Translations under genes and position numbers: made by a program | Shown: positions 4,724-29,880 of the stretch, piece by piece | Numbering within the stretch: the stretch's first letter is position 1 | Layout of the letters: each line of letters opens with the position of its first letter | Source of the DNA: a virus | Direction: 5' to 3' (one strand) | Length of the DNA: 64,000 bases | Virus record (IMG/VR): IMGVR_UViG_3300013212_000072 | Span: 1-64,000 of that record | Notes under the pieces: model-generated | What the model was told of the DNA's origin: nothing | What the model saw: the letters and a program-made list of their open reading frames with translations, nothing else | Database searches by the model: none

Positions 4724-4730
4724 CCACACA

Positions 4731-4757
4731 GAGGACCCCTAAAGGTCCTCCCTTTTA
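4731..4757 (+). terminator. Intrinsic terminator
   Basis: GAGGACC/GGTCCTC stem followed by CCTTTT, just after the 4316-4723 stop. Confidence 0.6.
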
Positions 4758-5065
4758 TTCAGGTCCGGCACGTCCGGAATCCACCCCTCCCCCACAATAA
4801 AAAACCGATAGAAATAGTAATCTAAAACAAAAACATCCCAATCTCTATATAGATATACAGATACAAGAATAACAGTATAAGGATATAAACCCCCTATAAA
4901 GAATCCACCCCTCCTCCCTAACCCCCATACCTGTCCAGATTCTAAGCCCCTTATGGTCCTACCAACCCTCCCTAACCCCTTTCAATTCCCAGTCAACCAG
5001 GTACCCCAGTTCTACCCCTCTTATTAAAATGATATATAGTAGACCTTCAGGAGACCAAGGGCCCC

Positions 5066-12025: not shown

Positions 12026-13996
12026 ATGACCAAAAAAACAAATACTCCATTCATTGACCAATTCGGAGAGGACTTAACTAAACTAGCAGCGGATGGGAAA
12101 CTTGACCCTATCATCGGCCGAGAAAAAGAGGTCTATAGAATATGCCAAATCCTTTCTCGTAGAAAGAAAAATAATCCAATTATTTTAGGGGATCCTGGCG
12201 TCGGTAAAACTGCCCTAGTTGAAGCAATTGCCCAGCGAATTGTTGAAAAGAAAGTTGCAATGACTCTTCTTAATAAACGCATAATCGCGCTTAATATAGC
12301 AAACGTAGTTGCAGGTACAAAATACCGCGGAGAATTCGAGGAACGAATGAAAAATATTGTTGATGAACTTAAAGAAAACCCAGACGTTATTGTCTTTATT
12401 GATGAGATTCACACGATTGTAGGAGCTGGTGGTGTAAGTGGTTCATTAGATGCAAGTAATATCTTAAAACCTGCATTGGCAAGAGGACAAGTACAATGCA
12501 TTGGTGCTACAACAATCGATGAGTATCGTGAAAATATTGAAACAGATGGAGCCCTTACTCGAAGATTCCAAGAAATCTTTATAGACCCACCATCTCTTGA
12601 AGATGCAATTGAAATATTGGATAGAATCAAACCAAATTACGAAGACTTCCATTCGGTATCTTATACTCCTGATGCTATCAAAGCATGTGTAATGTTATCT
12701 GACCGATATATTACACAAAGAGAATTACCAGACAAAGCAATCGACACCATGGACGAGGCTGGAGCAAAAGTGCATTTAAAAGAGGTAAAAATTCCGGAAA
12801 TTATTAAAGAACTTGAAATTGAAGCCGATAAATTAAAATCCCAAAAATTAAAAGCAGCAGATTCTACTGATTATGAAAAAGCTGGGAAATTAAGAGACCT
12901 TGAAATAAGTAAGCGAGAAGATATATCAAAAAGAACCAAAGAATGGGAGGAGACTCTTAGACTAAATAAAAAAGCAGTAACTTATGAAGATATTGCTGAA
13001 GTAATTTCAGAATCTACAGGAATTCCAGTAACTAGAATGACTGATGACGAGAGCAGAATTGTTATTGATATGGAAAATGAATTAAAAGCCATGATTATCG
13101 GACAGGATACTGCGGTTGAAGGTCTATGTAGAGTTATTAAAAGAAGCCGAACTGGTGTAAGTTCATCTAAAAAACCTATTGGTTCATTTATGTTTATTGG
13201 ACCTACTGGAGTTGGTAAAACTGAAACTGTTAAAGCTCTTTCTGAATATTATTTTGGAAGCGAGGATTCTTTAATTAGAATTGACATGTCTGAATACCAA
13301 GAAAAATTTAATGTAAGTAGACTTATTGGTTCTCCTCCGGGATATGAAGGACATGAGGATGGTGGACAGTTAACAGAACAAGTCCGACGTAAACCGTATT
13401 CGGTAGTATTATTTGATGAGGTTGAAAAAGCACATCCAGATATTTTTAATGTCTTATTGCAGGTTTTGGATGAGGGTCGTTTAACTGATACTCTTGGTAG
13501 AACTATTGACTTTACAAATACTATTATTATTATGACAAGTAATGTTGGGGCAAAGCGAGTTGCAGAATTTGGAGCTGGAATTGGATTCTCAAGTTCAAGT
13601 TCTACTGCTACCCATAAAATGGAAATGGAAACAGTTATTAGAAAGGAACTAAAAAACAAATTTGCTCCAGAATTCTTAAATAGACTAGACGAAATAGTAT
13701 TATTTGACGGGTTAAAACAAGAAGACGTTGCTAAAATTGCAGAAATAGAAATTCAAAAGGTAATTGAAAGAATGGCTGAGCAAGAGTATACTATTAAAAT
13801 TGCAAAAACTGCAGTAGTATTTTTAGCAGAACATGGATATGATGCTCAATATGGTGCCAGACCTCTTAAAAGAGCAATTCAAACTTATGTTGAAGACCTA
13901 TTAGCTGATGGCATATTAGCTAAAGAAATTGTTAAAGGAAATAAAGCCTACACAATATCTCATAAAAAAGGAGATGAGAAACTTTCTGTAAAATAA
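12026..13996 (+). CDS. clpC: ClpC-type AAA+ unfoldase lacking the N-terminal Clp-repeat domain
   Basis: Two AAA modules (GDPGVGKT, GPTGVGKT), AGTKYRGEFEER, a UVR-like M-domain (DYEKAGKLRD) and the ClpP-docking IGF loop (GAGIGF). The protein begins directly at AAA1. Confidence 0.92.
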   Translation: MTKKTNTPFIDQFGEDLTKLAADGKLDPIIGREKEVYRICQILSRRKKNNPIILGDPGVGKTALVEAIAQRIVEKKVAMTLLNKRIIALNIANVVAGTKYRGEFEERMKNIVDELKENPDVIVFIDEIHTIVGAGGVSGSLDASNILKPALARGQVQCIGATTIDEYRENIETDGALTRRFQEIFIDPPSLEDAIEILDRIKPNYEDFHSVSYTPDAIKACVMLSDRYITQRELPDKAIDTMDEAGAKVHLKEVKIPEIIKELEIEADKLKSQKLKAADSTDYEKAGKLRDLEISKREDISKRTKEWEETLRLNKKAVTYEDIAEVISESTGIPVTRMTDDESRIVIDMENELKAMIIGQDTAVEGLCRVIKRSRTGVSSSKKPIGSFMFIGPTGVGKTETVKALSEYYFGSEDSLIRIDMSEYQEKFNVSRLIGSPPGYEGHEDGGQLTEQVRRKPYSVVLFDEVEKAHPDIFNVLLQVLDEGRLTDTLGRTIDFTNTIIIMTSNVGAKRVAEFGAGIGFSSSSSTATHKMEMETVIRKELKNKFAPEFLNRLDEIVLFDGLKQEDVAKIAEIEIQKVIERMAEQEYTIKIAKTAVVFLAEHGYDAQYGARPLKRAIQTYVEDLLADGILAKEIVKGNKAYTISHKKGDEKLSVK

Positions 13997-14100
13997 TCAT
14001 ATAATCTTTTGTAAAGAGAACAAATTACCATATTCTATTTTAATTAAGAAACTTTCACCATGGAACGAATATAAAGTACTAACTATTAATAATAAATAAA

Positions 14101-14952
14101 ATGAATGCCGCAGAAACACTTGTACAAATTATTAAAGATATTAAATTAAATAAATCAGATTCAAATCCAAGAGATTTAAAAGTTAAAGAATTAATGTATG
14201 GTAGTTATACTTTTAATCCTACTATGCCCATTATTAATACAATCTCAAGGCCATTCGATTTCCGCTATTTTGCCGGTGAATTAGCATGGTACCTTTATAA
14301 AGATACCAATATTGATTACATCAATAAATTTTCTGGATTCTGGAAAAACATAACAAATCCTGGAACAAACGAAATTAATTCAAATTACGGTTCTCTTCTT
14401 TTCGGAGAACAATTACAATGGGTAGTCGATTCTCTTAAAGCAGACAAGAACACTAGACAAGCAATTGCTTTCTTAAATCAGCCAAAATACCAGTTTAAAG
14501 GTAATAAAGATTTTGTATGTACTATGTACTTAAACTTTTCAATCAGAAACAATAAGTTAGATATGAAAGTTCAAATGCGTTCTAATGATATATTCTATGG
14601 ACTTACGTTTGATGCCCCTTTCTTTGCATTTGTACATCAACATGTTTATCTTTGGTTAAAGTCAATTTACCCAGAATTAGAACTTGGAGTATACCATCAC
14701 TATTCCGATAACATTCACTTTTACGAAAGACATTTTGAATTAGCTGAAAAAATCGTTATGGAGCCTCTCCATGAGAAACAATACACAATGAAATTAACGG
14801 AACCAATTTTCAATATTGAAAATGGTGCAATGAAATTAACTAAATGCGGAGTTTCGATGATAAATAACATAAATTTTGCAATCAATAATGAATTGCCTAA
14901 AGAAAAGTATATTAACATATTATCTGAATATCTTAATATACAAGAATTATGA
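14101..14952 (+). CDS. Thymidylate-synthase-fold enzyme, Asp-type (dCMP hydroxymethylase/methylase-like)
   Basis: NSNYG, TRQA, catalytic Cys (DFVCT), MRSNDIFYGLTFD and NIHFYERH. Confidence 0.8.
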   Translation: MNAAETLVQIIKDIKLNKSDSNPRDLKVKELMYGSYTFNPTMPIINTISRPFDFRYFAGELAWYLYKDTNIDYINKFSGFWKNITNPGTNEINSNYGSLLFGEQLQWVVDSLKADKNTRQAIAFLNQPKYQFKGNKDFVCTMYLNFSIRNNKLDMKVQMRSNDIFYGLTFDAPFFAFVHQHVYLWLKSIYPELELGVYHHYSDNIHFYERHFELAEKIVMEPLHEKQYTMKLTEPIFNIENGAMKLTKCGVSMINNINFAINNELPKEKYINILSEYLNIQEL

Positions 14953-15254
14953 TTGAGTGTATGAAAACCAGATTAAATATTCCGGAATTCTATATAGATG
15001 GAAAGAATTTTGAATCAATTAAAAATGATTCTGAATTCCACGATAGAATTGTCGATTTTATCGAGATGAATCTTAAAAAAGAATGCGAAGATACTTTACT
15101 CTGTTATTTTGTTTATGAAAATGGAGCTATACAATATGCAGATCTTCCAAAAAGCTCGTACAAACAATCAATATTAAAAAGCTTGGAATTCTATACCTTT
15201 CATGAAAAATATGAAAGATGCGCACAAATTAAAAAACTATTAAAGAAACTATAA
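14949..15254 (+). CDS. UVR-motif small protein 1
   Basis: C-terminal EKYERCAQIKKLL; its stop overlaps the clpP ATG. Confidence 0.65.
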   Translation: MIECMKTRLNIPEFYIDGKNFESIKNDSEFHDRIVDFIEMNLKKECEDTLLCYFVYENGAIQYADLPKSSYKQSILKSLEFYTFHEKYERCAQIKKLLKKL

Positions 15255-15940
15255 TGAATCACGGAAAAGAATTCGAAAGATACGCAATGCTAGACAAGGG
15301 CATAAGTTCAATGAACATGCATTACTATAAAAACCAAATTGAATCTTCAATGACACCTTATATCCTAGAAGAGAGGCAATTGAGAGCTACTCAAATGGAT
15401 ATTTTCTCAAGGTTAATGATGGATAGATTATTATGGGTTGCAGGACCTGTTAATGACAATATGTCTACGATAGTACAAGCTCAATTGATGTTTTTAGATA
15501 GTACCGATGACCGAGATATAACTATGCATATTGATAGTCCTGGAGGTTCTGTAAAATCAGGGCTTTCTATGGTTGATGTTATGGAATGGATTAAATCCGA
15601 TATCAAAACTGTAAATACAGGAATGGCTGCTTCGATGGGTTCAGTATTATTAGGTGCTGGAACTAAAGGCAAGAGAAGTTCATTAAGACACTCGACTACT
15701 ATGTTACACCAATCTTCAGGAGGATTCAGCGGAAATATACAAGATGCTGAAATAGACTGGGCAGAATGGCAAAAAGTAAATAAAGAACTTTTTAATTTAT
15801 TAGGAGCTTATTGTGATAAAAAACCTGAACAAGTAATGGCCGATGCTACTAGAGATTTATGGTTAAGCGCAGAAGAAGCACTTAAATATGGTATAATTGA
15901 CGAGATTATTAATCCTGTTAAATCAAAATCTAGAAAATAA
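15254..15940 (+). CDS. clpP: ATP-dependent Clp protease proteolytic subunit
   Basis: DIFSRLMMDR, IDSPGG, catalytic AASMG, MLHQ and RDLWL. Confidence 0.95.
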   Translation: MNHGKEFERYAMLDKGISSMNMHYYKNQIESSMTPYILEERQLRATQMDIFSRLMMDRLLWVAGPVNDNMSTIVQAQLMFLDSTDDRDITMHIDSPGGSVKSGLSMVDVMEWIKSDIKTVNTGMAASMGSVLLGAGTKGKRSSLRHSTTMLHQSSGGFSGNIQDAEIDWAEWQKVNKELFNLLGAYCDKKPEQVMADATRDLWLSAEEALKYGIIDEIINPVKSKSRK

Positions 15941-16138
15941 ATGAAAATTCATTTTTACATACATGAAGGAGAACTTGAATACTTAGATAAAATAATTAAA
16001 GGAAAATTAGATGCAGAGCTATATCCAATTACAATATCCCCAACCTACTTTAAAGATTCATACTTAATAGATATTTCCTACTCTGATTTTGTAAGATTAA
16101 ACGATAAAAATACATTTATTTCATTAATTTCATTATGA
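15941..16138 (+). CDS. Hypothetical protein
   Basis: 65 aa, coupled in the operon. Confidence 0.6.
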   Translation: MKIHFYIHEGELEYLDKIIKGKLDAELYPITISPTYFKDSYLIDISYSDFVRLNDKNTFISLISL

Positions 16139-16446
16139 CAAACCGAGAAAAACAAAGAGAACTTTTTGTTGAATTGATTAACTATCAACTTAAAGACCAT
16201 GGAGTAACATACGAAGATGTTAAAACCAATCCATCATGGTATATGGATTATAAAACTACTCCAGAGAAAGAAGAGGCATTTATTAAATATTCTGTGGAAA
16301 GAATACGAGAAGTGCTTAAAATATCAAAAGTTGCTGCTGAAAAAGAAGCAAGTTGGTTTATTCTACAGTGGGGATTAACTACTATTAATCCTAGAAAAAC
16401 TACAAGCAAAGTACAAAGTAATGTTAACAAAAGAACTAAGTCTTAG
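16135..16446 (+). CDS. Hypothetical protein
   Basis: 103 aa, coupled in the operon. Confidence 0.65.
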   Translation: MTNREKQRELFVELINYQLKDHGVTYEDVKTNPSWYMDYKTTPEKEEAFIKYSVERIREVLKISKVAAEKEASWFILQWGLTTINPRKTTSKVQSNVNKRTKS

Positions 16447-16507
16447 ATTATAGTAATATAAACAAAAAATACCTATATAATTTAGTATACTTGAGATAGA
16501 TATAGGT

Positions 16508-17209
16508 ATGAATGTCTTTGCACCAAATTGGCTAACAGAGCCGCCTCATGACTATGAGTTAAAATATTACAAGCTACTTGCTGGAATCGATAAAATTAAA
16601 AAAATGATTTCTGCCAATAGCTTGTATTCTGCTATTTTAGAAGTAGAGACCGAACTTGAAAAACTATACAATATTAAATACGGAAAAGACGAAATTGAAA
16701 GCAAAACCAGAATAATTACTGGAATTGATGTTGATACAATGTCTTTAAAATATGAATATCCAGAAGAAATTGATGGCGTCAACTCAATGTATGATGTTTG
16801 TGACACTGCAATTGAAAAACTAGAAGACCTATACCGAATTATTAGAGATAAATGGAGACTAGTTGAATCACAGTGCACTATTACCGAGATTCCAGAGAAA
16901 AAGCACCTCAATACTAAAGGGTACATTTTTTATATCGATATAATAAATCAAAAAATTCACGTCTATTCTTATATAGAACCTTCATCTTTTAAAATAAATT
17001 GGAGTGAGTTTAATTTAAAGAAAGTTGAAGAGCTAGAAAATTCAACCAAAGAGATTTCTGAGTTTATTAAAAAAATAGAATTAGAAAGTACTTCTTACAG
17101 ATTTTTTAGGTTTGATACAAAATTTAAAACTGCGCTACCTCCATATAATGATTGTATGTTACCAATAATGAAGAGCATGTTGTTTAACCGAATCAAACAC
17201 GGCATCTAA
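16508..17209 (+). CDS. Hypothetical protein
   Basis: 233 aa ORF preceded by GATAGATA and a hairpin covering the start codon. Confidence 0.7.
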   Translation: MNVFAPNWLTEPPHDYELKYYKLLAGIDKIKKMISANSLYSAILEVETELEKLYNIKYGKDEIESKTRIITGIDVDTMSLKYEYPEEIDGVNSMYDVCDTAIEKLEDLYRIIRDKWRLVESQCTITEIPEKKHLNTKGYIFYIDIINQKIHVYSYIEPSSFKINWSEFNLKKVEELENSTKEISEFIKKIELESTSYRFFRFDTKFKTALPPYNDCMLPIMKSMLFNRIKHGI

Positions 17210-17259
17210 ATAAATACTAAAAATATATAAACTAATTTTATTTTTATAATATAATTAGT

Positions 17260-19110
17260 ATGAAAATTAATATAATAACTCGAGCTACTCGTCTGCAAAA
17301 TTTAAAGACTGTTAAAGAATCTGTTTTTAATAATATTCCAAGCGGATGTGAAATTAATTGGCACTTAGTATTTGACACTAAAAATCTTAAAGATATTGAT
17401 GCAGAATTACTATGTGATTTAAAAGATGATTCAACAACATATCATTTTGAAAAGGGAGACTCCATAGGAATGTTATATCCTCAATGTTCTGATATAATTT
17501 CAAAATTTGGAGAAGGTTGGGTTTATTTTTTAGATGATGACAATATTATTCATGAAGGTTTCTATGAATATGTTTTACAATCTTCATTAGAGAATCCAGA
17601 CAAAAAAGTTCATGTGGTTTCGCAGAATGTCGCAGGAAAGGATTTTACCAACTTAACATATAGAAAGGCAGCTCCTAAATATACAAAAGTACAGTGTATA
17701 GATTTAGCACAATATATCGTTAATACCGAAGTTTACAATAAATACGGATATAAATATTTACCTGACTATCGAGCAGATGGAATCCTTATAGGAACTATCC
17801 ACGCAGAACATCCTGAGTGGTTTACATTTACTGAATTAACATTATCACACTACAACTATCTCCAGAAAAACGCAAAAGCAAAACTTCCTAAAGTATTATA
17901 TATTGGTGATGATGAACCTGAATTAAAATCACTTAAAATACTAGATTACGAGGATGATAGTCTAGAGATTAAATACTTAAAGAATGATAATGATATTGCA
18001 ATATCATTAGCTTCATTTAAACCAGATGTTATTATAACCAGAGGGAAATCTTGGGAAGATTTCCCGGAAATGGCAAGCATGTCACTTCAATTTAGACGAA
18101 AATGGTTAAATCTTGACAAAGAAATTTCTATTGGAGATGTTGGACAAACTGCGTATCAATGTTCAATGGAAAGTATGTTGAACCCAGATGGATTAGAAGA
18201 TAGTTCAATGATTTCATACTTTACCCCAATATACAATACTGGTGAAAAACTATTCAATACGTATCAATCCTTACTAGACCAAACATACGGTAATTGGGAA
18301 TGGGTATTAGTAAATGATTCTTCCGATGGTGGAAAAACATTAAAAATAGCAGAATCTATTGCAGCAAAAGACCCAAGAGTACGTCTTTATGATTTTAGAG
18401 AAAAAAGCGGTGGAAATATTGGTGAGGTTAAATGGAGATGCTGTGTAATGGCTAAAGGTTTTATTTTAGCTGAATTAGACCATGATGATTTATTAGTTCC
18501 ATGGTGTACTGAAGATCTTTATAAAGCAGCTAAAAAACACCCAGAAGCCGGATTCTTTTTTAATGATACCGTTGAAGTTGATGAGAACTGGAATTCTTTA
18601 ACCTATCCAGAAGGATTTGCGCTCGGATACGGATCATATAGAAAAGAAGAGTATGCTGGACAGATAATGAATGTTTCTAATCAACAGAATATTAATCCAA
18701 AAACAATTAGACATATAGTTGGCGTACCAAATCATGTAAGAGCATGGAGACGATCTACATATTTTGAAGTCGGAGGACATAATAGAAGTCTTGTAATAGC
18801 CGACGATTATGAGTTGGTTGTGAGAACGTTCTTAAAAGCAATAACTTGTAAAATACCAAAATTAGGATACGTTCAATTCTTATACAATAATGCGAATGGA
18901 CAAAACACGCACAATTTATCTAGAGCAGATATCCAAAGGCGTGTAAGAACAATAAGTTATTATTATAACGAACAGATTAAAAATAGATTTGAAGAATTAG
19001 GATTAAAAGATTGGGCGCATGAAGAATGTCCATGGGCTCCTTTAAATACTGTCTCAAGATTTGGTCAAGAAGAGATGGCAGCAAATATAATATACAACGA
19101 AAATGAATAA
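17260..19110 (+). CDS. Two-domain GT-A (GT2-like) glycosyltransferase
   Basis: N-domain with YFLDDDN; C-domain with FTPIYN, EWVLVND.S.DG, AELDHDD and ADDYEL. Confidence 0.85.
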   Translation: MKINIITRATRLQNLKTVKESVFNNIPSGCEINWHLVFDTKNLKDIDAELLCDLKDDSTTYHFEKGDSIGMLYPQCSDIISKFGEGWVYFLDDDNIIHEGFYEYVLQSSLENPDKKVHVVSQNVAGKDFTNLTYRKAAPKYTKVQCIDLAQYIVNTEVYNKYGYKYLPDYRADGILIGTIHAEHPEWFTFTELTLSHYNYLQKNAKAKLPKVLYIGDDEPELKSLKILDYEDDSLEIKYLKNDNDIAISLASFKPDVIITRGKSWEDFPEMASMSLQFRRKWLNLDKEISIGDVGQTAYQCSMESMLNPDGLEDSSMISYFTPIYNTGEKLFNTYQSLLDQTYGNWEWVLVNDSSDGGKTLKIAESIAAKDPRVRLYDFREKSGGNIGEVKWRCCVMAKGFILAELDHDDLLVPWCTEDLYKAAKKHPEAGFFFNDTVEVDENWNSLTYPEGFALGYGSYRKEEYAGQIMNVSNQQNINPKTIRHIVGVPNHVRAWRRSTYFEVGGHNRSLVIADDYELVVRTFLKAITCKIPKLGYVQFLYNNANGQNTHNLSRADIQRRVRTISYYYNEQIKNRFEELGLKDWAHEECPWAPLNTVSRFGQEEMAANIIYNENE

Positions 19111-19321
19111 TACTTACGTAAAAATATGGGTTCATAATAGAGAATCTGACTTAATGATGGATTTCTTATTAGATAGAGTTGCTGAGCCTCCTCACTATAT
19201 AATTGACTATAAAGAAGTACCCAAATCCATTACAGGTGGATGGATCGAAATGACAATATCTTATGATAGGTACCTTAAACTTCGGCAGTCTCATGACCAT
19301 GTAGATACTACGCATCTTTAA
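19103..19321 (+). CDS. Hypothetical protein (weakly resembles 15941-16138)
   Basis: 72 aa; both proteins begin KI(W/H).. and contain ISY...RL/KL. Confidence 0.55.
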   Translation: MNNTYVKIWVHNRESDLMMDFLLDRVAEPPHYIIDYKEVPKSITGGWIEMTISYDRYLKLRQSHDHVDTTHL

Positions 19322-19352
19322 ACTTTTTTATTTTCTTGTGTATAATTAGTAT

Positions 19353-19601
19353 ATGGCAAAAAATATAAAAGAACCCAAAGTATATGTGGTTAAACCAAAG
19401 GTTGGAGAAAACTATTATTTTAAATTTGCGGGGAGTATTATGCATGGTGAATTAGTTTCCTTAAACGAAGCACTAACTAAATTGCATGGAATTCCACACT
19501 ATTGGATGAATGAAAAGTCAGACAGAAGTGTAAAAAAATGCGTATACCCAATATCGATTTATAAGATTTTTAAAGATTTAAACGACTCAAGATATGTATA
19601 A
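19353..19601 (+). CDS. Hypothetical protein
   Basis: 82 aa ORF behind a middle-type promoter. Confidence 0.6.
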   Translation: MAKNIKEPKVYVVKPKVGENYYFKFAGSIMHGELVSLNEALTKLHGIPHYWMNEKSDRSVKKCVYPISIYKIFKDLNDSRYV

Positions 19602-20325
19602 CACTAGCGAATTAAAGTCAATGTTATTTATTGACATTGAAACCTCTTCAGAATACCCAAATTACGAAGAATTTTGTATTAAAAGGCCAGGCGCCATAAA
19701 GCATTGGGCTAAAAAAGCAGAACAGCACAGAAATACTGAATCGCATTTAGTAAAACTTACCGATGCAGAAATGTATACTCACATGTCGGCACTTAGTCCA
19801 GAATTTAGTAAGGTTATTGTAATTTCTATGGGACAAATTAAATTCCAAGATGGTATTACAACCTCAAAAATTCGTTCTTTCTATAAGGGTAGTGAAACGG
19901 AAATTCTTAAAGAGTTTATGGGTACTGCTCAAGCTGTTTTTAATCAAAGTCCTTCAGTTCAATTTACTGGACATAATATTAAAAACTTTGATTTTCCATA
20001 TCTAATAAAAAGATCCATTGTAAATGGAGTAGCTATACCTCATCAATTTCATTTACAAAAGAAAAAACCTTGGGAAAACTGTCTTGTAGATACTTATGAA
20101 ATTTGGAAATTTGCAGGTTGGAATAGCGCATCATTAGATTTAATTTGTGACACTCTTAATATTCCATCTCCTAAAACTATAATGGAGGCAAGTAGTACTA
20201 CTGAAGAATATTGGAATGGTAATATTGAAAAAATAAAAACGTACTGCGAAGGAGATGTTAAAGCAACAATGAATGTGATGCTTAAAATATCAGGGATGGA
20301 TATGGTTGATGAGGTACCATTTTAA
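19594..20325 (+). CDS. DEDD 3'-5' exonuclease (PolB-exonuclease-like)
   Basis: FIDIET, GHNIKNFDFPY, SLD and YCEGDV motifs. Confidence 0.85.
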   Translation: MYNTSELKSMLFIDIETSSEYPNYEEFCIKRPGAIKHWAKKAEQHRNTESHLVKLTDAEMYTHMSALSPEFSKVIVISMGQIKFQDGITTSKIRSFYKGSETEILKEFMGTAQAVFNQSPSVQFTGHNIKNFDFPYLIKRSIVNGVAIPHQFHLQKKKPWENCLVDTYEIWKFAGWNSASLDLICDTLNIPSPKTIMEASSTTEEYWNGNIEKIKTYCEGDVKATMNVMLKISGMDMVDEVPF

Positions 20326-20408
20326 ATTGTTAATAACTTTTTGATAAAAAGTTTTACCGTGTCAAGAATTTGTATTATATTTACATATCAAATTAAAACC
20401 TTATAATC
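20325..20408 (+). promoter_or_regulatory. Repeated early promoter (dispersed copy)
   Basis: AATTGTTAATAACTTT...ATTATATTTACATATCAAATTAAAAC. Confidence 0.75.
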
Positions 20409-20702
20409 ATGGACGAAGACTTTAACAATTTATTTGAAGAACAAGAAAACGAAATCGACACTATTAAAAAAGAAGCCGAAATGAATAACGTAATGTATGA
20501 TTTGAAAATCAAACTTGCAAATGAAAATTATGAATCAATAATTTCTAAAGGGGTTGATTTTAAATTAATGGAAAAACAAGAAATCGATATTAGACCCATT
20601 GTTAAAATACTGGGAGATATGTTAGAACTTTTTGAAGAACGCGAAGAGTACGAAAAATGCGCAAAAATAAATAAGATACTTAAGAAAGCAAAGGTCCTAT
20701 AG
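20409..20702 (+). CDS. UVR-motif small protein 2
   Basis: C-terminal FEEREEYEKCAKINKIL. Confidence 0.7.
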   Translation: MDEDFNNLFEEQENEIDTIKKEAEMNNVMYDLKIKLANENYESIISKGVDFKLMEKQEIDIRPIVKILGDMLELFEEREEYEKCAKINKILKKAKVL

Positions 20703-20716
20703 GACCTTTTTTTTTT
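20690..20716 (+). terminator. Intrinsic terminator
   Basis: AAAGGTCCTATAGGACCTTT palindrome followed by poly-T. Confidence 0.8.
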
Positions 20717-20747
20717 AATATATAATGTACTAATAAAGTATATCGAT

Positions 20748-20957
20748 ATGAACGAAGAATTATTAAAAAAGATTGCAGATAGTCTGGAAAGAATTGCAAT
20801 TTGCATGGAAAACAAACAGCTAAGAGAAATTGCGACTTATAGAAAAGGTCAAGCTTCATTAATTGCCGAGAAAAAAGAAGCTAGCAAGAATCAGGTAAAA
20901 TCTGCTCCGATTCCTATAGTAAAGCAGACGGTTAGAGTTAGAAATTCTAAAAAATAA
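20748..20957 (+). CDS. Hypothetical protein
   Basis: 69 aa with LKKIADSLERIA. Confidence 0.6.
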   Translation: MNEELLKKIADSLERIAICMENKQLREIATYRKGQASLIAEKKEASKNQVKSAPIPIVKQTVRVRNSKK

Positions 20958-20963
20958 ACTCTA

Positions 20964-21791
20964 ATGAATTATTACGAAACTCTTAATGTTTCAAAGAATG
21001 CTACTCCTGAAGAGATTAAAAAATCTTATAGGAAACTTGTAAAAGAGCATCACCCTGACAAAACAGGGGGAGACGACACACAATTCAAAAAAATATCTGA
21101 AGCATACGAAACTCTTTCTGACTCTGTCAAAAAAGAGCAGTATGATAATCCATCTAGAGGACATAATCCTTTTAACAATTTCCATGGATATCAAGATACA
21201 TCAAATCCATTTGCGCACGCCTTTCGAGGATTTGGTGGAGATTTTGCTGATATGTTTAATCAATCGTTTGGCGGAGAAGCAAGAGGATCTGACGTTAGAG
21301 TTATGCTCAACATAACTCTTGAAGAATCTTATGATGGTTCGAGAAAATATATTGATGTTGGTACTGGTGGATTTAATATCAATATACCTCGAGGAATTTT
21401 GAATGGAACAAAACTTAAAATTCCAGGTAAAGGAGCTAACCATCCTGTAAATTCATCTGCACCTCCAGGCGATATTATTCTAATTGTCAATGTTTTACCA
21501 GACCCTGAACTTATTGTTAACGGTAGTGATATTTATGTTGATTTAAACTTAAGTTGGATTGACATCTTGCTTGGAGGAGAATTTGAAATTCGTACCAAAC
21601 TAAAGTCTATTAAAATAAAAGTTCCTCAAGGTTCTCATGAGTCACAATTGCTGCGAGTAGTTGGGCAAGGAATGCCAATATATAATTCAGAAGGATTCGG
21701 AAATCTTATGGTAAAATTAAGAACTCTTCCTATAACTTTAACCGAACCCGAAATAGAATTACTTAAAAAGATAAAAAATCAAAATGAGTAG
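20964..21791 (+). CDS. dnaJ: DnaJ/CbpA-type co-chaperone (class B, no zinc finger)
   Basis: J-domain with HPD, a G/F linker and a C-terminal domain (GDI.L, G.GMP). Confidence 0.9.
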   Translation: MNYYETLNVSKNATPEEIKKSYRKLVKEHHPDKTGGDDTQFKKISEAYETLSDSVKKEQYDNPSRGHNPFNNFHGYQDTSNPFAHAFRGFGGDFADMFNQSFGGEARGSDVRVMLNITLEESYDGSRKYIDVGTGGFNINIPRGILNGTKLKIPGKGANHPVNSSAPPGDIILIVNVLPDPELIVNGSDIYVDLNLSWIDILLGGEFEIRTKLKSIKIKVPQGSHESQLLRVVGQGMPIYNSEGFGNLMVKLRTLPITLTEPEIELLKKIKNQNE

Positions 21792-22132: not shown

Positions 22133-22390
22133 ATGGGAGATATTACAGGGGAGGAAAGAGATTCTCTGATGAGGTCCAGCTACTATATACTTACTAGAAA
22201 TTTTACTAAAACCATTAATAGATTTGTTGTTTATAATGATGGTAATCACACAATCGATATTCCACATGGAATCGGACAGCGAAGCAAATTCGTAGATGTC
22301 CTAATAGAATATTTCGTTGAGTTAGAGGAATATGAAAAATGCGATTCGCTCAAGAAATTAAAAGAACTAGTCATAATGACTGGTGATTAA
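22133..22390 (+). CDS. UVR-motif small protein 4
   Basis: C-terminal YFVELEEYEKCDSLKKL. Confidence 0.7.
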   Translation: MGDITGEERDSLMRSSYYILTRNFTKTINRFVVYNDGNHTIDIPHGIGQRSKFVDVLIEYFVELEEYEKCDSLKKLKELVIMTGD

Positions 22391-22406
22391 ATATATACAA
22401 ATTTGT

Positions 22407-23156
22407 ATGCAAAAAAGAACAGTGGAAAGTAAATCAAAAACAACTAAAGCAAAACCCACAACTACTAAAAATCCAATTGGACGTCCTAAAAAAACAGTAG
22501 TAAAAGAATTAGATTTAGTAGGAGTACAATTAAAGCCGTCTCAATATGATTATTTTGAAAAAATTAAAAAAAATGAAATAACATTCTGTTCTGGTCCTGC
22601 TGGAACTTCAAAAACATTTACGGCATGTTATACTTCCCTATGGTTGCTAGCAACAAAAGGAGTTTCAAAAATTATTTTATGTAAACCAATTCAAGAATCC
22701 GGAGAAAAACTTGGATTCCTACCTGGAGATATTGCAGACAAGGTTGACCCTTACATGCAATCATATATTTCAAATTTTAAAAAAATAGTAGGTGATGAAT
22801 TAACCGAAGGTTTAATTGCTTCAGGTGCTATTGAATTTAAGCCACTTGCATTTATGAGGGGTGATACATTTGATGATGCGTTTATGATTCTAGATGAAGC
22901 GCAAAATGCTCCATGGAATGCTCTTATACTATTTATTACTAGAATGGGTAAAAATTCTAAAGTACTAGTATCTGGAGATATAAGTCAGTATGATATTGCA
23001 AAAGATAAGGTAACATTTCATAAATTCATAGAAATGTATAAACCAGTACATGGTGTTGGAGTTCATGAGTTTGGGATTAAAGACATTGTGCGTGCAAAAA
23101 TATTACAAGAAATTGTAAGCATTTATGATAAATGGAAATCCGATAATAATCTTTAA
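22407..23156 (+). CDS. phoH: PhoH-family ATPase with a replacement C-terminus
   Basis: GPAGTSKT, LGFLPGD, FMRG.TF, ILDEAQN and GDISQYD. The ATG at 22407 is preferred over the GTG at 22383. Confidence 0.92.
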   Translation: MQKRTVESKSKTTKAKPTTTKNPIGRPKKTVVKELDLVGVQLKPSQYDYFEKIKKNEITFCSGPAGTSKTFTACYTSLWLLATKGVSKIILCKPIQESGEKLGFLPGDIADKVDPYMQSYISNFKKIVGDELTEGLIASGAIEFKPLAFMRGDTFDDAFMILDEAQNAPWNALILFITRMGKNSKVLVSGDISQYDIAKDKVTFHKFIEMYKPVHGVGVHEFGIKDIVRAKILQEIVSIYDKWKSDNNL

Positions 23157-23278: not shown

Positions 23279-24073
23279 ATGAAAAACTACAAATATTATT
23301 ATGTTTATAGAATAACTAATACTTTACATAATAAACATTACTACGGCTACAGATCTTCTAATACCTCACCTTTATTAGATATTGGTATTAAATATTTTTC
23401 TTCGAGCAGAGATAAAGATTTTATAAAAGACCAAATTGAAAATCCAAATAATTATAAATATGTTGTTGTTAGGGTTTTCGAAAATAGGGAAGATGCACAT
23501 AATTTAGAAATAGAACTGCATGCAAAATTCAATGTAGGTATTAATCCATCATTTTATAATAGAGCAAAAGCAACTAGTTCTAGATTTTCAATAACTGGAA
23601 CTTCTCTATCAGATGAAACCAAAAAAAGAATGTCAATATCACATAAAGGCAGGATTGTTTCTCAAGAAACTAGAGATAAAATATCGAATGCTAACAAAGG
23701 AAAAAAGCATACGGATAAATTTAAAGATAAAATTAGAAATCGAGCGCAAGGAAATTCATATCATAAAAATAAAAAGCATACTGAAGATTCAAAGGTTAAG
23801 ATGAGCAATTCACTTAAAGGAAAGAAAGCATGGAATAAAGGTATAAAGACTCCGGATGAAGTTAAAGCAAAACAATCATTAGCTAAATTAAATATGACTC
23901 AAGAGCAAAAAGATAAAATGCATTCTTGGAAAAAAGGTCGACCATTATCTGAAGAAACTAAGAAAAAATTATCAAAACCTCAAACAAAGGTAGAATGTCT
24001 ATATTGTAATAAAATTGGAGGTATTTCTGCAATGAAACAATATCATTTCGATAATTGCAAACAAAAAATATGA
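23279..24073 (+). mobile_element. Free-standing GIY-YIG homing endonuclease with NUMOD3 repeats
   Basis: YVYRITN...YYGY, YFSSS, repeated ETK.KMS/H.E..K.K.S units and C-terminal C..C...HFDNCK. Confidence 0.85.
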
Positions 24074-24239
24074 TATACCAAAAGCAAGTGCAGGTCTTCC
24101 AGGATTCATGCAGCTAATGAAGGGAATTAAAGGAACAGGAGAACATGTTTTTGAGAATAAAGATATTGTAAGAGCTAAAATACTTCAAGATGTTGTAGAC
24201 AGATACGACAAATGGAGAGTTGAAAATCCTGAAAAATAA
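24069..24239 (+). pseudogene. Stranded original 3' end of phoH
   Basis: Reads YDIPKASAGLPGFMQLMKGIKGTGEHVFENKDIVRAKILQDVVDRYDKWRVENPEK*, collinear with the PhoH C-terminus. Confidence 0.85.
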
Positions 24240-24284: not shown

Positions 24285-24917
24285 ATGGAAACCAGACAAA
24301 TACTACTTAAGCACTCCTACACAGGAGATGAATCAATTATAGAAATTGGTGTTGATGAGGCTGGCCGAGGTTCACTAAGTGGACCTGTTACGGTAGCCGC
24401 ATGTATAATGCCATTTGGATTTGAAAACCCCCTGATCAAAGATTCAAAACTATTAAATGAGCAACAGCGAAAAGAGGCTCGTCGAATTATCGAGGAAAAC
24501 GCTATTGCATATCACATTGAACATATATCTCCCGAAGATATTGAGGCAACTAATATCTTAAAAGCAACCTTAATTGGAATGCAACGATGTTTAGAAGGTG
24601 TAAAGAATAATGCATTATTTGACTTTATATTAGTTGATGGCGACCAATTCCACGGATTTGAAGGAATTCCTTTTGAAACAGTAGTTGGAGGAGACAATAA
24701 ATATATTTCAATTGCTGCTGCAAGTATTCTAGCCAAAACCGAACGGGATTCAGTTATGAAAGATTTGGATATTGAGATTCCCGGATATGGCTGGAATTCA
24801 AATAAAGGGTATGGCACCGCGGCACATTTAATTGCAATTAAAGAATTAGGCCCAAGTAAGTATCATAGAATGAGTTTTATATCGCATTTGTTAACATCAA
24901 CTAATTCTTTATTTTAA
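24285..24917 (+). CDS. rnhB: Ribonuclease HII
   Basis: GVDEAGRG, DSKLL, VDG, SIAAASILAK, NKGYGT and HRMSF. Confidence 0.95.
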   Translation: METRQILLKHSYTGDESIIEIGVDEAGRGSLSGPVTVAACIMPFGFENPLIKDSKLLNEQQRKEARRIIEENAIAYHIEHISPEDIEATNILKATLIGMQRCLEGVKNNALFDFILVDGDQFHGFEGIPFETVVGGDNKYISIAAASILAKTERDSVMKDLDIEIPGYGWNSNKGYGTAAHLIAIKELGPSKYHRMSFISHLLTSTNSLF

Positions 24918-25047
24918 AATATTTTTAAAGGGTCTCTACTTATACATATATTTTGTTTGTCGTTATTCTAAAATAGTTTGTCTAGAGGCCCTTTTTTCTT
25001 ATGATGTGAGATATATAATATAACGACAAACAAAAATATTATATTAA

Positions 25048-25690
25048 ATGTACATCTACAAGACAACAAACAACAAACAACATCAACAACAAAATTTATA
25101 TTGGACTATCTACTAGATTAGTAGAAGAGTCGAAAGATTACTTTGGTTCCGGATTAAAATTAAATAAAGCTATTCAAAAATATGGCAAAGAAAATTTTAC
25201 TAAAGAAATAATAGAAAGTGGTATAGCAAATAAAGAGTTATTAAATGCTCGAGAAGTGTATTGGATATCCTATTACAATTCGACTGATAAATATGTTGGA
25301 TATAATATTTCAAATGGAGGTACTGGAGGAGATATGATAACTAATAATCCTAATAAAAATAAAATTTTAGAAAAAATATCTATTGCGGTAAAAAAATCAT
25401 GGAATGATGACCGTAAAGAACATTATAAAAAATTATGGGAAGGTTCTAACAATCCTAATTATGGTAAAGAATTCTCAGAGGAACACAGAAAAAAGATTAG
25501 AGAAGGTGGGATTGGAAATACTAATGCAGCAGTACCTTGCTCAAACGAAAAGAAAAATAAGATTAGTAAAAAATTAAAAGGAATTAAACAGATTGTGGTT
25601 GAATGTCCACATTGTAAGTTAACCGGAGGAAACCCTATAATGAGAAGATACCATTTTGATAATTGCAAGCAAATAAAAAATAAAAAATGA
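25048..25690 (+). pseudogene. GIY-YIG homing endonuclease frameshifted by a 7-nt tandem duplication
   Basis: MYIYKTTN, then an extra ACAACAA unit (25063-25082), then INNKIYIG...YFGSG...GYNIS.GG.GG in the frame of the 25256-25690 ORF. Confidence 0.8.
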
Positions 25691-26031
25691 GATCGTTAAT
25701 TTATGGTATTCTATTGTTCCTATTTGGACAATCGTTTATATGGTTCCAAACAAACGGACAGTTTATGTGGCCATGGTTTAAAAAGAATCCACTCCTAGTT
25801 GCAATAATTGGAGGGTCTACAATATCATACGTTTTTATAGAGGCAACCAGAATGATTGCAGAATATTATGACGGACAATTATGGCCTGGAAGATTTATTG
25901 GATTTTCAATGGGCATGATTTCATTCTCTATATTAACATATTACATAATGAATGAGCCACTAAACGCAAAGACCATAATCTGTTTGATACTTTCATTAGC
26001 CCTAATCTGTGTCCAAATATTTTGGAAATAA
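25687..26031 (+). CDS. Small membrane protein with four TM helices (DMT/SMR-like)
   Basis: 114 aa hydrophobic ORF with an NEPL..K motif before the last helix. Confidence 0.6.
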   Translation: MRSLIYGILLFLFGQSFIWFQTNGQFMWPWFKKNPLLVAIIGGSTISYVFIEATRMIAEYYDGQLWPGRFIGFSMGMISFSILTYYIMNEPLNAKTIICLILSLALICVQIFWK

Positions 26032-26525: not shown

Positions 26526-26837
26526 ATGGAAACTTTCAAAAAAATAGAAGTAGTAAAAAACTTAGTTGCAAAATATCTTAAGGAAAACGGCGAACATGCT
26601 GGACTAAGCGAATTAGATTGTCAAAATGCGCATATTGTCGAAATAGGAACATCAATCTTATGTACCAAATGGCAAGTTGGATATGCTGGAGGTGGATTCG
26701 TTCAAGCAGTTGTAGATAACGATTTACAAGGTGCTATTGGTAGAGCAGATGGTACTAGTATTCGGGCTCTTAAATTCTATTGTCAATTAATGTATAATGT
26801 CGGGATGCCTTACTTTAATGAGGAACTATTAAAATAA
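26526..26837 (+). CDS. Hypothetical protein
   Basis: 103 aa with GGFVQAVVDNDL.GA..RAD. Confidence 0.7.
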   Translation: METFKKIEVVKNLVAKYLKENGEHAGLSELDCQNAHIVEIGTSILCTKWQVGYAGGGFVQAVVDNDLQGAIGRADGTSIRALKFYCQLMYNVGMPYFNEELLK

Positions 26838-26844
26838 TAAAAAC

Positions 26845-27231
26845 ATGGACATAAAAAATTTTAAATGTAATGGCATTAGTCTTAATTCAAATGCCGATAA
26901 AGTAAAACCCTTTATTCAAACTGCAATATCTTTATATAGAATGAGAAACTCTTCTCATGAGATAATTGAAAAACTGGTACAAAATAATCCTAAGTATGAT
27001 TATTACCCTGGCACTAGATTTTCTAACAATGAAGCAATTGCTATTCGAATATGCTCAGGTCTTGTAGAATTAGCTTTAAATTCTGGCAAACAAGATAATA
27101 CAATTGAAGAGAATATCGAATCATTTGTGAATTCTCTATCTGGCACAGAACTAGACCAGATAATTTTAGAAGCTATGCGAGATTGTGCAAGTGCCGACCA
27201 CTGGTATGCTTTTGAAAAAGAATGGGATTAA
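26845..27231 (+). CDS. Hypothetical protein
   Basis: 128 aa ORF. Confidence 0.65.
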   Translation: MDIKNFKCNGISLNSNADKVKPFIQTAISLYRMRNSSHEIIEKLVQNNPKYDYYPGTRFSNNEAIAIRICSGLVELALNSGKQDNTIEENIESFVNSLSGTELDQIILEAMRDCASADHWYAFEKEWD

Positions 27232-27260
27232 ACTTTTTAAATTAACTTAATATAAAATAC

Positions 27261-28169
27261 ATGGGAGCTAACTACGGATATTGTTGTATAAATCTAACTC
27301 TAGACAAGAGTGGTATTAAAATCGGGCGTTCAATGATTAAAAAGACCTTTGACGCAAAAGGTATCAAATACGCTGGAGAACTTGCCGAGGCAAATATCCG
27401 TGACATGATAGAAATTATTAAATGGAATCATAAAAACGGTGTTACATTATATCGTATGTCCTCTAGTATGTTTCCATGGATGTCAGAATACGAGCTTACT
27501 GATTTGCCAAATTGGTCAACAATTTCAAATCTACTAAAGGGTGCTGGCACACTAGTGCAAAAATACGGACAGCGTGTTGGTTTTCATCCTGGACAGTTTT
27601 GTGTACTTCCAAGTCCAAATCAAAAAACCGTAGACAATTCTATTAAAGAACTCGACCAACATGCATTTATTCTTGATACTATGGGTCTACCGGTTAATCA
27701 ACAATACTCTATGAATATTCATGTTGGTGGTTCTTACGGAGATAAAGAAGCTGCAATCCTAAGATTCATTGAAAACTTTAAATTGTTATCTCCTTCTGCA
27801 CAGTCTCGTTTAATCCTTGAAAACGACGATAAACCTGCGCAATATTCGGTAAGCGACCTTTACCGAATCTATCAAGCGGTTGGTACGCCTATCACCTTTG
27901 ATTACCATCACCATCGATGTTACAATGACCCGATGTCCGAACAAGATGCTCTTCTTTTGGCAGCTCGTACTTGGCCTAAAGGTATTCGCCAATTGTGTCA
28001 CTACTCAAGCGCTAAAAAATTACACGAGGATGCTTCTGTTATTATAAGAGCACATGCTGATTATTTGTATGAATTTATTGATACTTACGGTATGGAAATA
28101 GACATTGAACTTGAAGTAAAAATGAAAGAGCTAGCTTTATTAAAATATTTTAAAGATTACTTACATTAA
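27261..28169 (+). CDS. uvsE: UV-damage endonuclease UvsE/UVDE with a replacement C-terminus
   Basis: GYCC, YRMSS, HPGQF, NIHVGG, LENDD, FDYHHH, HYS, HAD and E.K.KE. Confidence 0.92.
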   Translation: MGANYGYCCINLTLDKSGIKIGRSMIKKTFDAKGIKYAGELAEANIRDMIEIIKWNHKNGVTLYRMSSSMFPWMSEYELTDLPNWSTISNLLKGAGTLVQKYGQRVGFHPGQFCVLPSPNQKTVDNSIKELDQHAFILDTMGLPVNQQYSMNIHVGGSYGDKEAAILRFIENFKLLSPSAQSRLILENDDKPAQYSVSDLYRIYQAVGTPITFDYHHHRCYNDPMSEQDALLLAARTWPKGIRQLCHYSSAKKLHEDASVIIRAHADYLYEFIDTYGMEIDIELEVKMKELALLKYFKDYLH

Positions 28170-28231
28170 AATCAATAAATTTCAATAAGTAAGGTAAGGC
28201 AAAAGATATATAAAGTAAAGTAAAATAAACT

Positions 28232-29002
28232 ATGTATACTAGAAACTGTCCTACGTGCAATAAAGAAATTTCATATTCAAATAAAGGTAATGCAGATAGA
28301 GCTATAAATGGTAAAAAGGTTTGTAAATCATGCTCGGTTAAACTTAGAAATAATGACAAAACATATTTAAACAAAATATCTGAATCTAGAAAAAAATACT
28401 TTAAAGAATTGTCTGAAGAAGATAAAGAAATTTGGAAGTCTAATAACTCAAAAGCTCAAAAGAAAGCATGGGAGAATAAAAGTGATGAAGACAGAGAAAA
28501 ATATGCAAAAAATGTAAGTGAACAATCAAAAGAAAGATGGAGTGACCCTGATTATACAGAAAGAGTTTCAACATCTATGAAAGAAAACCCATGGCCTAAA
28601 AATAAAACTCCTGAAGAAATTATTGAAATAAATAAAAGAACAACCACTACTAAATATGAAAAGTACGGAACATTATTTCCAGGAGGAGGAAACAAACAAA
28701 AGAAAACTATAATAAAAGGATTGATATGTGAAAGTTCATTTGAGTTAAAATATATTGAATCTTTAATTTCTAAAAATATAGAGTTGCCAAAAAATGCAAA
28801 ACGTATTGAAACTCCATTTGGATATTATACTCCAGATTTTGAATATGAAGACAGATTTATAGAAATAAAGTGTGAGTTTACCTATAAGGTTTTAATTGGA
28901 GAATCTTCATTTAGTAAAAGTGGAAATTATAATCCAAAGCAATTAAATAAAATAAAGTGGGTTAGTGAAAATATTAAAAATGTAGAAATAATAGTTCTTT
29001 AG
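28232..29002 (+). mobile_element. Putative free-standing homing endonuclease (Zn ribbon, NUMOD-like helices, PD-(D/E)XK domain)
   Basis: CPTC...CKSC, basic repeats, and C-terminal SSFE...YTPDF...IEIK. Confidence 0.7.
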
Positions 29003-29064
29003 CAAAATCAAAAGAATTGGCTCTTCAAAAATACCAAAAAGAATATATACTCTGTGAAAAATAA
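29002..29064 (+). pseudogene. Stranded original 3' end of uvsE
   Basis: AKSKELALQKYQKEYILCEK* versus the current end VKMKELALLKYFKDYLH*. Confidence 0.75.
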
Positions 29065-29371
29065 AACAATTGAGTTAGACAAACTAAAAAAGGAAGTTAA
29101 CCTATTTTTAGAGGCTCTTAAAAAAGAGGGCATTGAAACAAAATCAATGTCTAAACTTTTAACAACATGTGTTATAGAACGCAGACCTTTAACTGATGAA
29201 GAGGGTAAGAAGTTTGCAAATCAATTAAAAAATCTGGTTAAGACTCTTGGACTGGCAACAATAATCCTAATGCCAGGAGGTTCAATATTCTTTATATTAA
29301 TACACTATCTTAAACTTCGAGACTACTTTCTTTCAGACAGTTTTAATTATTTAAAAAATAAAGATATATAA
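29054..29371 (+). CDS. LETM1-like small membrane protein
   Basis: ANQLKNLVKTLGLATIILMPGG resembles bacterial LETM1-related proteins. Confidence 0.5.
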   Translation: MKNKTIELDKLKKEVNLFLEALKKEGIETKSMSKLLTTCVIERRPLTDEEGKKFANQLKNLVKTLGLATIILMPGGSIFFILIHYLKLRDYFLSDSFNYLKNKDI

Positions 29372-29397
29372 AATCTAAACAAAAATACAAATATATT

Positions 29398-29880
29398 ATG
29401 GCAAGTATTAAAAGATTCGAAGAATTTGTCTCAGAAATGGACAGAGCCGAAGAAATAGAAGCAGACGTTGTTGCTAAAGGAACTCCTGATGTTAAATCTG
29501 AAGAAGAAACAGAAGAGGAAGCAGAAGAGGTTCAAGGATTAGACGAAGCTGTCGAAGCAAACATTGGAGATGACGCTGAAGAAATTAAAGAAGAGACTAA
29601 ACCTGTTTCAGAACTATTAAAAGATTGCTACGAGGCAGTTATTGCAGAGGCTAAAGCATGGGAAGAAGATGCGCACGATGAGCATACTGTAGAAACATAT
29701 ATGGCTGAAAATGCAGCACTTGTTGCAGGTATGGCAGCTAATTGTGTTAAAGAAATGAAAAAAGACATGGCTTCTGAAGCATATGAAGCATGCTTAAACA
29801 AAATGAGCGAGGCTTTCAGTAAGAAAATTAATGAAAATAAAGAGGCCACTGCAGCTACAGACGCTGAAGATATTAAATAA
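29398..29880 (+). CDS. Acidic internal head / scaffold-like protein
   Basis: MASIKRFEEFVSE N-terminus, very Glu-rich; GATATATA at 29363. Confidence 0.5.
   Translation: MASIKRFEEFVSEMDRAEEIEADVVAKGTPDVKSEEETEEEAEEVQGLDEAVEANIGDDAEEIKEETKPVSELLKDCYEAVIAEAKAWEEDAHDEHTVETYMAENAALVAGMAANCVKEMKKDMASEAYEACLNKMSEAFSKKINENKEATAATDAEDIK

Follow-up and report, generated by a model that had tools for sequence, protein, structure and literature searches.

A putative homing cassette carrying a replacement uvdE gene end and a PD-(D/E)XK nuclease gene in phage genomes

INTRODUCTION

How can a free-standing nuclease gene lie inside the coding sequence of a conserved phage gene that still has a complete end? 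This question is raised by uvdE, the gene for a UV damage endonuclease, in the IMG/VR record IMGVR_UViG_3300013212_000072. Positions 1-64,000 of this record (64,000 nucleotides [nt]) were analyzed and are referred to here as the window; other loci are labeled L001 and so on. In the window, uvdE is followed by a nuclease gene and, directly at the stop codon of that gene, by an untranslated second uvdE end. An earlier note on this DNA had read the arrangement as a replacement of the 3' end of the gene by an invading PD-(D/E)XK endonuclease. Here, comparison with related loci indicates that the insert is very probably a mobile cassette, consisting of a substitute uvdE end, a promoter-bearing spacer, and a PD-(D/E)XK homing nuclease gene, which was inserted after the Glu codon of a conserved motif; we propose that it moves by homing.

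RESULTS

The native uvdE end is displaced behind the nuclease gene

The whole uvdE open reading frame (ORF) occupies positions 27261-28169 on the + strand and encodes 302 amino acids (aa), with the C terminus ...ELEVKMKELALLKYFKDYLH (also written ...EIDIELEVKMKELALLKYFKDYLH) followed by the stop. Its body, up to the Glu codon of ...IELE (27261..28115, +), was assigned by Pfam to UvdE (PF03851, 202.8 bits against a cut-off of 24, residues 5-274, E=8e-60). The solved UVDE structure 3TC3 (PDB) aligned with E=1.8e-38, and ...DIELEVKMKELALLK of the window UvdE stood opposite ...DIMLEVKDKEISALK of 3TC3 in the C-terminal E-x-K-x-K-E motif. Thus, the gene called uvsE in the earlier note does encode a UV damage endonuclease, but its name by Pfam is UvdE/UVDE.

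The second uvdE end, AKSKELALQKYQKEYILCEK followed by a stop, lies at 29002..29064 (+), in a frame that opens at the G of the nuclease TAG stop. It is covered by no ORF of at least 20 aa with a start codon. In IMG/VR, 80 loci were found to encode UvdE proteins with 63-95% identity to that of the window. The intact uvdE genes of L001, L002, L007, L008, L009, L012, and L013 end in ...IEIEAKAKELALQKYQKEYILCEK and a stop, matching the window orphan at 19 of 20 aa. At the DNA level, the native end of L012 and the orphan were identical at 62 of 63 nt, and the sole change (GCA to TCA) fell in the Ala codon of K-A-K. The orphan also overlaps the GTG start of the next gene (29054..29371, +, 105 aa), exactly as in nuclease-free relatives, in which this gene begins at the same overlapping GTGAAAAATAA, with the GTG 11 nt before the uvdE stop. 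The product of this downstream gene, for which no Pfam and no PHROG family was found, is 89-94% identical in the closest relatives sharing the ILCEK-type uvdE end. These matches identify the orphan as the ancestral uvdE end and delimit the inserted DNA to 28116-29001.

The two uvdE ends of the window share 10 of 17 aa and 31 of 51 nt. Their local alignment score was 49, and none of 200 shuffles reached it (mean 26, standard deviation 4.4, maximum 43). The mirroring of the current uvdE end at the nuclease stop, the overlap of the remnant with the GTG start, and the presence of the orphan-type ending in relatives, on all of which the earlier note had relied, were therefore borne out.

The insert carries a substitute end and a spacer with a candidate promoter

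The insert consists of 17 substitute uvdE codons with a stop, a 62-nt spacer, and the gene of the 256-aa nuclease. The replacement end, VKMKELALLKYFKDYLH and a stop (28116..28169, +), is read as having arrived with the nuclease. It is unlike the EIEAKAKELALQKYQKEYILCEK end of all closest relatives, and its pattern (ELEVK.KELALLKY.K.YL) resembles the ELEVKAKELAL[IL]KY.K.YL type of uvdE end seen in L019-L038, which form a more distant clade.

The spacer (28170..28231, +) contains the promoter-like motif GATATATA at 28205-28212, and the homologous nuclease genes in L088 and L089 are also preceded by a similar spacer. Eleven copies of GATATATA were found in the window against 6.1 expected, all on the + strand, with at least eight located 12-36 nt before a start codon; 11 copies were reached in none of 100 shuffles. 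The sites include 23243, 25010, 28205, 29363, 32911, 43319, and 57725. The motif is thus a candidate phage promoter element and may serve as such in the spacer. Scans of 27900-29400 for sigma-70 promoters and terminators were at or below chance, and no terminator was found in this region.

The flanks of the insert were also compared with L012. Nucleotide identity was 93-99% in the upstream flank and 96% in the downstream flank, but only 84% across the uvdE body, which is the background level among these phages. Co-conversion of all of uvdE on the left side of the cassette would fit this divergence.

A zinc ribbon and helical repeats precede the PD-(D/E)XK domain of the nuclease

The nuclease gene (28232..29002, +, TAG stop) is a free-standing gene resembling those of homing endonucleases. 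Its product begins with a zinc ribbon (CxxC...CxxC, residues 1-35), continues with about four helical repeats of ~23 residues (about 42-145), and ends in a PD-(D/E)XK-fold nuclease domain (about 155-256). In an alignment of 18 sequences, E171, D202 (in T-P-D202-F-E), and K213 were invariant, and E211 was mostly Glu, with Asp in two sequences. An AlphaFold model (mean pLDDT 87) folded the last 100 residues into an alpha-beta-beta-beta-alpha-beta unit, with a helix at 169-180, strands at 192-194, 197-199, and 208-213, a helix at 215-221, and a strand at 250-255. According to this model, the protein has the core of the PD-(D/E)XK superfamily together with its E...D...ExK motif, the class to which it had been assigned earlier.

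Structural comparison by a method other than Foldseek matched residues 153-256 to TnsA (Z 7.1 over 93 residues), Vsr (Z 5.7), I-Bth0305I (Z 5.5), VRR-NUC (Z 5.1), a tRNA-splicing endonuclease, and Hjc (Z 4.4). Residues 42-105 matched DNA-binding STPR repeats (Z 4.8, rmsd 2.0). The Foldseek matches were weak (E of at least 0.03), yet they, like the top structural hits for residues 153-256, were all enzymes of the PD-(D/E)XK superfamily.

Ten homologues were found among 5.8 billion proteins, and no match was obtained in PHROG or among PDB sequences. A profile search of 1.84 billion representatives returned 759 clusters at E<=1e-3, 31 of them at E<=1e-30, and in sampled relatives the same nuclease domain is joined to helix-turn-helix (HTH) arrays, zinc fingers, or NUMOD3. 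Such a modular build is typical of free-standing homing endonucleases. The look-alikes in the Atlas are phage proteins with NUMOD3 plus Tn7_TnsA-like_N, DUF7487, or Phage_endo_I domains and serve as leads only. The family has no curated name and was previously unnamed. Among 50,697 phage records, neither the DNA of the 3.1-kb region nor the nuclease (tblastn) had a match, and the best UvdE match was in a 642-kb uncultured phage (43%). Proteins of 142-152 aa, consisting of the nuclease domain and basic tails only, are encoded in L084, L085, L094-L096, L098, L100, and L101, in a conserved phage neighborhood away from uvdE.

The nuclease recurs sporadically at one codon position of uvdE

The nuclease gene was absent from all 80 related uvdE loci. 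A single-protein query of viral contigs with the nuclease gave no match, and the homologous loci were obtained from alignment-based scans of viral and metagenome contigs, covering homologues with retrievable DNA at 40-70% identity. In all seven loci with a complete full-length homologue (L082, L083, L088-L091, and L093), the nuclease gene directly follows uvdE; this count leaves out the closest homologues P0002 (83%) and P0003 (80%), as well as P0005, P0006, and P0008. The same adjacency was seen in L103, which is cut by the contig end. Within the clades of L088 and L093, the nuclease is present in a minority, and most relatives are without it. The gene thus shows the sporadic presence and absence at one locus among close relatives that is expected of a homing gene, and, counted without correction for kinship, the constant association with one conserved target that is altered in element-bearing genomes. 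In L082, an extra ORF of 134 aa (4553-4957) lies between uvdE and the nuclease gene; it is absent from L091, whose nuclease locus is otherwise 96% identical.

A second uvdE end was also found after the nuclease stop in L089 (score 80), L090 (score 49, KSKDLAVIKYRSQFQVLKG and a stop), L093 (score 46), and L104 (score 50). When 180 uvdE loci were scanned, second ends at nuclease-associated loci scored 46-80 against a background with a median of 27 and a maximum of 42. No nuclease-free locus among the 180 had such a native-end stub, except for the footprint in L156 described below. The nuclease-free relatives of L090 and L093 end in EIEAKAKDLAVIKYRSQFQVLKG and a stop, the very sequence of the L090 and L093 stubs, and BLASTN aligned L090 to L105 with one clean insertion of 922 nt.

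The junctions lie within one to three codons of one another, in E-x-K-x-K-E/D: before the first variable position (x1) in the window, and at or just after it in L089 and L090. Likewise, the stubs of the window, L089, L090, L093, and L104 all begin within one to three codons of E-x-K-x-K-E/D. A conserved motif near the C terminus had been proposed earlier as the target of such replacements, and as an insertion site it holds in at least four to five lineages; cleavage would presumably occur there as well.

Base composition identifies the replacement end as foreign. Precisely over the new end, the spacer, and the nuclease gene of L089, the GC content drops from 50-60% to 28-32%; the switch falls at the E-L-E-C-K codons, and the GC content returns at the stub. 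Values of 45-60% were found for the uvdE body and for the stub plus downstream DNA, and the cassette averages about 30% in a genome of about 50%. Since the replacement end of L089 shares the low GC content of the nuclease gene, it belongs to the foreign cassette, which has crossed between phages of very different base composition. Within positions 1-1840 of L089, the cassette stands out as a sharp island in the contig of 45-60% GC. The nuclease is also more conserved than UvdE between the window and L088 (70% versus 53%) and between L082 and L091 (96% versus 82%).

Several loci carry what look like later stages. In L104 (3424-3700), an internal deletion of ~600 nt joins 27 N-terminal codons of the nuclease gene to its last ~44, and this decaying copy keeps both the replacement end and the native stub. 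ELECK-type ends without a nuclease are retained in L102, L109, and L115. In L156 (3340-3490), a replacement end is followed 23 nt later by a stub identical to the native end of L155 and L157, with no nuclease between them; we read this as a footprint left when the nuclease was lost, the other possibility being a replacement cassette that has no gene. Naive, invaded, decayed, and lost allele states are thus all represented.

Both copies of the motif are changed at the Ala codons

After dereplication, Ala at x1 of E-x1-K-x2-K was found in none of 10 nuclease-bearing alleles and in 93 of 119 nuclease-free ones; the corresponding figures for Ala at x2 were 0/10 and 90/119. The stubs of the window, L090, and L104 have Ser at x2 (TCA, TCC, TCT), where nuclease-free relatives have GCA or GCC, and the stub of L089 keeps Ala. 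We infer that the enzyme recognizes the sequence encoding E-A-K-A-K. The predicted target spans roughly 25 bp around GA(A/G)-GCN-AAA-GCN-AAA-GA(A/T), with specific resistance changes.

The cassette is common to L090 and L104, as is the beginning of the stub (~25 nt, with the Ser codon), and the native tails that follow differ (KYRSQFQVLKG versus KYREQFKVIKG). A shared stub start followed by different tails suggests crossovers inside the stub, so the stub may act as a right homology arm.

Other loci in the window

The phoH gene (22383-23156) of the window is followed by a NUMOD3 nuclease ORF with a GIY-YIG-like N terminus (23279-24073) and by an orphan phoH end at about 24066-24239. This orphan corresponds to the last ~54 codons of phoH, and its alignment score was 135 against 26 ± 4 for shuffles. 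Hence, the duplication of the phoH end is real, and the claim of the earlier note that the replacement-end layout recurs with a nuclease of another family is upheld on both counts.

About 800 nt of the window (about 24900-25700) were absent from all nine close relatives aligned. An ORF in this stretch (25256-25690) has a C terminus with a Cys motif (...YHFDNCKQ) that shares 57% identity with the end of the nuclease beside phoH. The stretch, which contains GATATATA at 25010, is probably a third, truncated nuclease insertion.

Positions 12026-21791 encode a chaperone and protease set unusually rich for a phage, with a ClpC-like AAA+ protein (12026-13996), ClpP (15254-15940), and DnaJ (20964-21791). 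A ThyA-fold enzyme (14101-14952) and a GT2 glycosyltransferase (17260-19110) are also encoded there.

DISCUSSION

Proposed mechanism and its weak points

The insertion leaves uvdE with a complete end: the gene finishes in the 17 codons of the cassette, and its original 20 codons are left untranslated past the nuclease stop. In the proposed mechanism, the nuclease would cut nuclease-free uvdE alleles of the E-A-K-A-K type at or near the motif during mixed infection, and the break would be repaired from the cassette-bearing genome. Homology on the left would come from the uvdE body, and homology on the right from the displaced end together with the downstream gene. The element would thus behave like a mobile intron that supplies a replacement end in place of splicing. 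The target would be split by the insertion, and the changes of both motif copies at the Ala codons would protect the element from its own nuclease.

Several observations weigh against this proposal. The window structure is known from a single metagenomic contig, and both cleavage and the cut site are predictions. Four nuclease-bearing loci (L082, L083, L088, and L091) have no stub. Between L090 and L093, the order of conservation is reversed, with 74% for the nuclease and 91% for UvdE. The Ala tally (Fisher p of about 1e-6) is uncorrected for shared ancestry, and some nuclease-free clades, too, have no Ala at one or both of the positions (A-K-M-K, 12; V-K-A-K, 16; C-K-Q-K, 3). The fold matches of the nuclease are moderate (Z 5-7), and its score for the Pfam family RE_endonuc (PF19778), 17.1 bits, is below the cut-off of 23.4. 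In addition, the divergence of the uvdE body could reflect replacement in L012 instead of in the window.

Alternative explanations

The alternative that deserves most attention accepts the nuclease as a homing endonuclease and takes the stub as a mere by-product that marks the cut end, where nonhomologous or microhomology joining would complete the right side of each invasion, and that is irrelevant to later mobility. In the window, L089, and L090, the right junction is found no more than a few bases from the nuclease stop, the window stub is of the recipient (L012) type right up to the junction, and the four stubless loci just mentioned agree with it as well. However, the combination of a shared cassette and stub start with different native tails in L090 and L104 would be expected from crossovers inside the stub, and lineages with nucleases of only 40-60% identity have their junctions at the same codon. 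We therefore consider this explanation unlikely. A further explanation would be that the nuclease is not selfish at all and is a conserved accessory repair partner of UvdE, its position reflecting operon function. Such a role is compatible with its intact catalytic residues and with its place right beside uvdE at all retrieved loci that have a full-length homologue. Nevertheless, its absence from each of the 80 loci closely related to that of the window and from the majority of L088 and L093 relatives speaks against it, and the duplicated target end, the foreign composition, the decay by internal deletion in L104, and the modular relatives fit a selfish element. A functional partnership was rejected on this distribution and on the decay states and is very improbable.

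The remaining two explanations have next to no probability. Chance, low complexity, or an assembly artifact might be suspected behind the likeness of the two uvdE ends, which are rich in Lys and Glu and in AT and come from one metagenomic contig. This was rejected by the matches to native ends in relatives (62/63 nt in L012 and 19/20 aa in seven loci) and by the shuffle test (0/200), and the same architecture was seen in independent samples. Introns and inteins are often found where this insert lies, within coding sequence and at a catalytic motif that is conserved, so the insert could also be a group I or II intron, or an intein, that is excised from the RNA or the protein. That explanation was likewise rejected: positions 26800-29500 gave no Rfam match at E<=1, uvdE terminates at a stop of its own after a complete tail with the motif, and the nuclease is a separate ORF, with uvdE, the nuclease, and the stub each in a different frame.

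Comparison with known mobile elements

The layout is not new in principle, since fungal mitochondria share it. Mobile endonuclease ORFs (mORFs) create gene hybrids in atp6 of Allomyces macrogynus, in atp6, atp9, cox2, and nad3 of Glomus sp., in atp9 of Rhizopus, and in cox2 of Mortierella (PMC3630166). Their order is the gene core, an inserted foreign C terminus, a LAGLIDADG or GIY-YIG ORF, and a native C terminus close to that of relatives (PMC3630166). In Endoconidiophora, partial C-terminal duplications of cob and atp6 lie beside free-standing endonuclease ORFs (PMC6279837). The uvdE cassette has the same order, a native copy nearly identical to that of relatives, and a divergent inserted copy (64-81% in Glomus; 31/51 nt here), and in both systems the native copy is not needed for the product. 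In contrast to the organelle setting of mORFs, the window genome is a virus record with phage genes. The nuclease is of the PD-(D/E)XK fold, with no LAGLIDADG or GIY-YIG Pfam domain. It is encoded by a separate ORF with a promoter-like motif, whereas mORFs are fused in frame, and a population series of naive, invaded, decayed, and lost alleles exists here at one codon. The uvdE cassette therefore works like an mORF and is not a member of the mORF lineages.

The seg and mob genes of T-even phages are free-standing homing endonuclease genes that move by intronless homing; in T4, they are intergenic or interrupt a gene, which then yields two polypeptides (nrdA, gene 60, gene 43) (PMC2988022). Like them, the uvdE nuclease gene is free-standing and sporadic among relatives, and it has in common with them mobility with co-conversion of flanking markers (probable here), target differences in the resident genome that presumably give immunity, and its own promoter of middle or late type (a candidate here). 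Unlike them, the uvdE cassette sits inside a coding sequence and supplies a replacement end. Duplicated gene ends are not mentioned in the review of T4-type mobile elements (PMC2988022) or described in the study of nuclease genes of ICP1 phage (PMC10448857). In the literature found, limited to open-access text, none were described beside phage homing endonucleases.

Homing by PD-(D/E)XK enzymes has precedents as well, and I-Ssp6803I is a homing endonuclease of this fold. In comparison with I-Ssp6803I and I-Bth0305I, the uvdE nuclease is free-standing and not encoded in an intron or intein, its best structural matches are TnsA and Vsr, and its zinc ribbon and about four helical repeats are different. 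The family of I-Bth0305I (PDB 3R3P) was first described in PMC2677866. The uvdE nuclease is similar to I-Bth0305I in its restriction-endonuclease-like catalytic core (Z 5.5, rmsd 3.1 over 71 residues), which it would likewise use for homing. The likeness is structural only, with no detectable sequence similarity; the motif of the uvdE nuclease, E...D-x8-E-x-K, differs from the Vsr-like EDxHD signature, and a conserved His-Asp pair is lacking. What appears to be new here is an mORF-like replacement-end cassette in phages, together with an uncharacterized PD-(D/E)XK nuclease family that is specialized on a single codon position in uvdE.

Implications

It is conceivable, with confidence somewhat short of even, that replacement-end homing is a general strategy, as yet without a name, by which free-standing nucleases persist within phage genes, that the stub is a right arm renewed with each invasion and carrying a protective change, and that the uvdE nuclease is the founder of a large, uncharacterized PD-(D/E)XK homing family. 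If so, the stub would not be debris, and the Ala-to-Ser change, which affects one and the same codon in two lineages whose nucleases are only ~46% identical, would be protective. The homing family would then comprise 759 clusters at 50% identity with interchangeable DNA-binding modules. Carrying a spare gene end would represent a third route into coding sequence, neither splicing nor a split protein. Hybrid gene ends and orphan fragments beside nucleases would be footprints of homing rather than sequencing noise, which bears on annotation and phylogeny. In addition, the natural allele series, from naive through invaded and decayed to lost, may serve the study of the homing cycle in uncultured phages.

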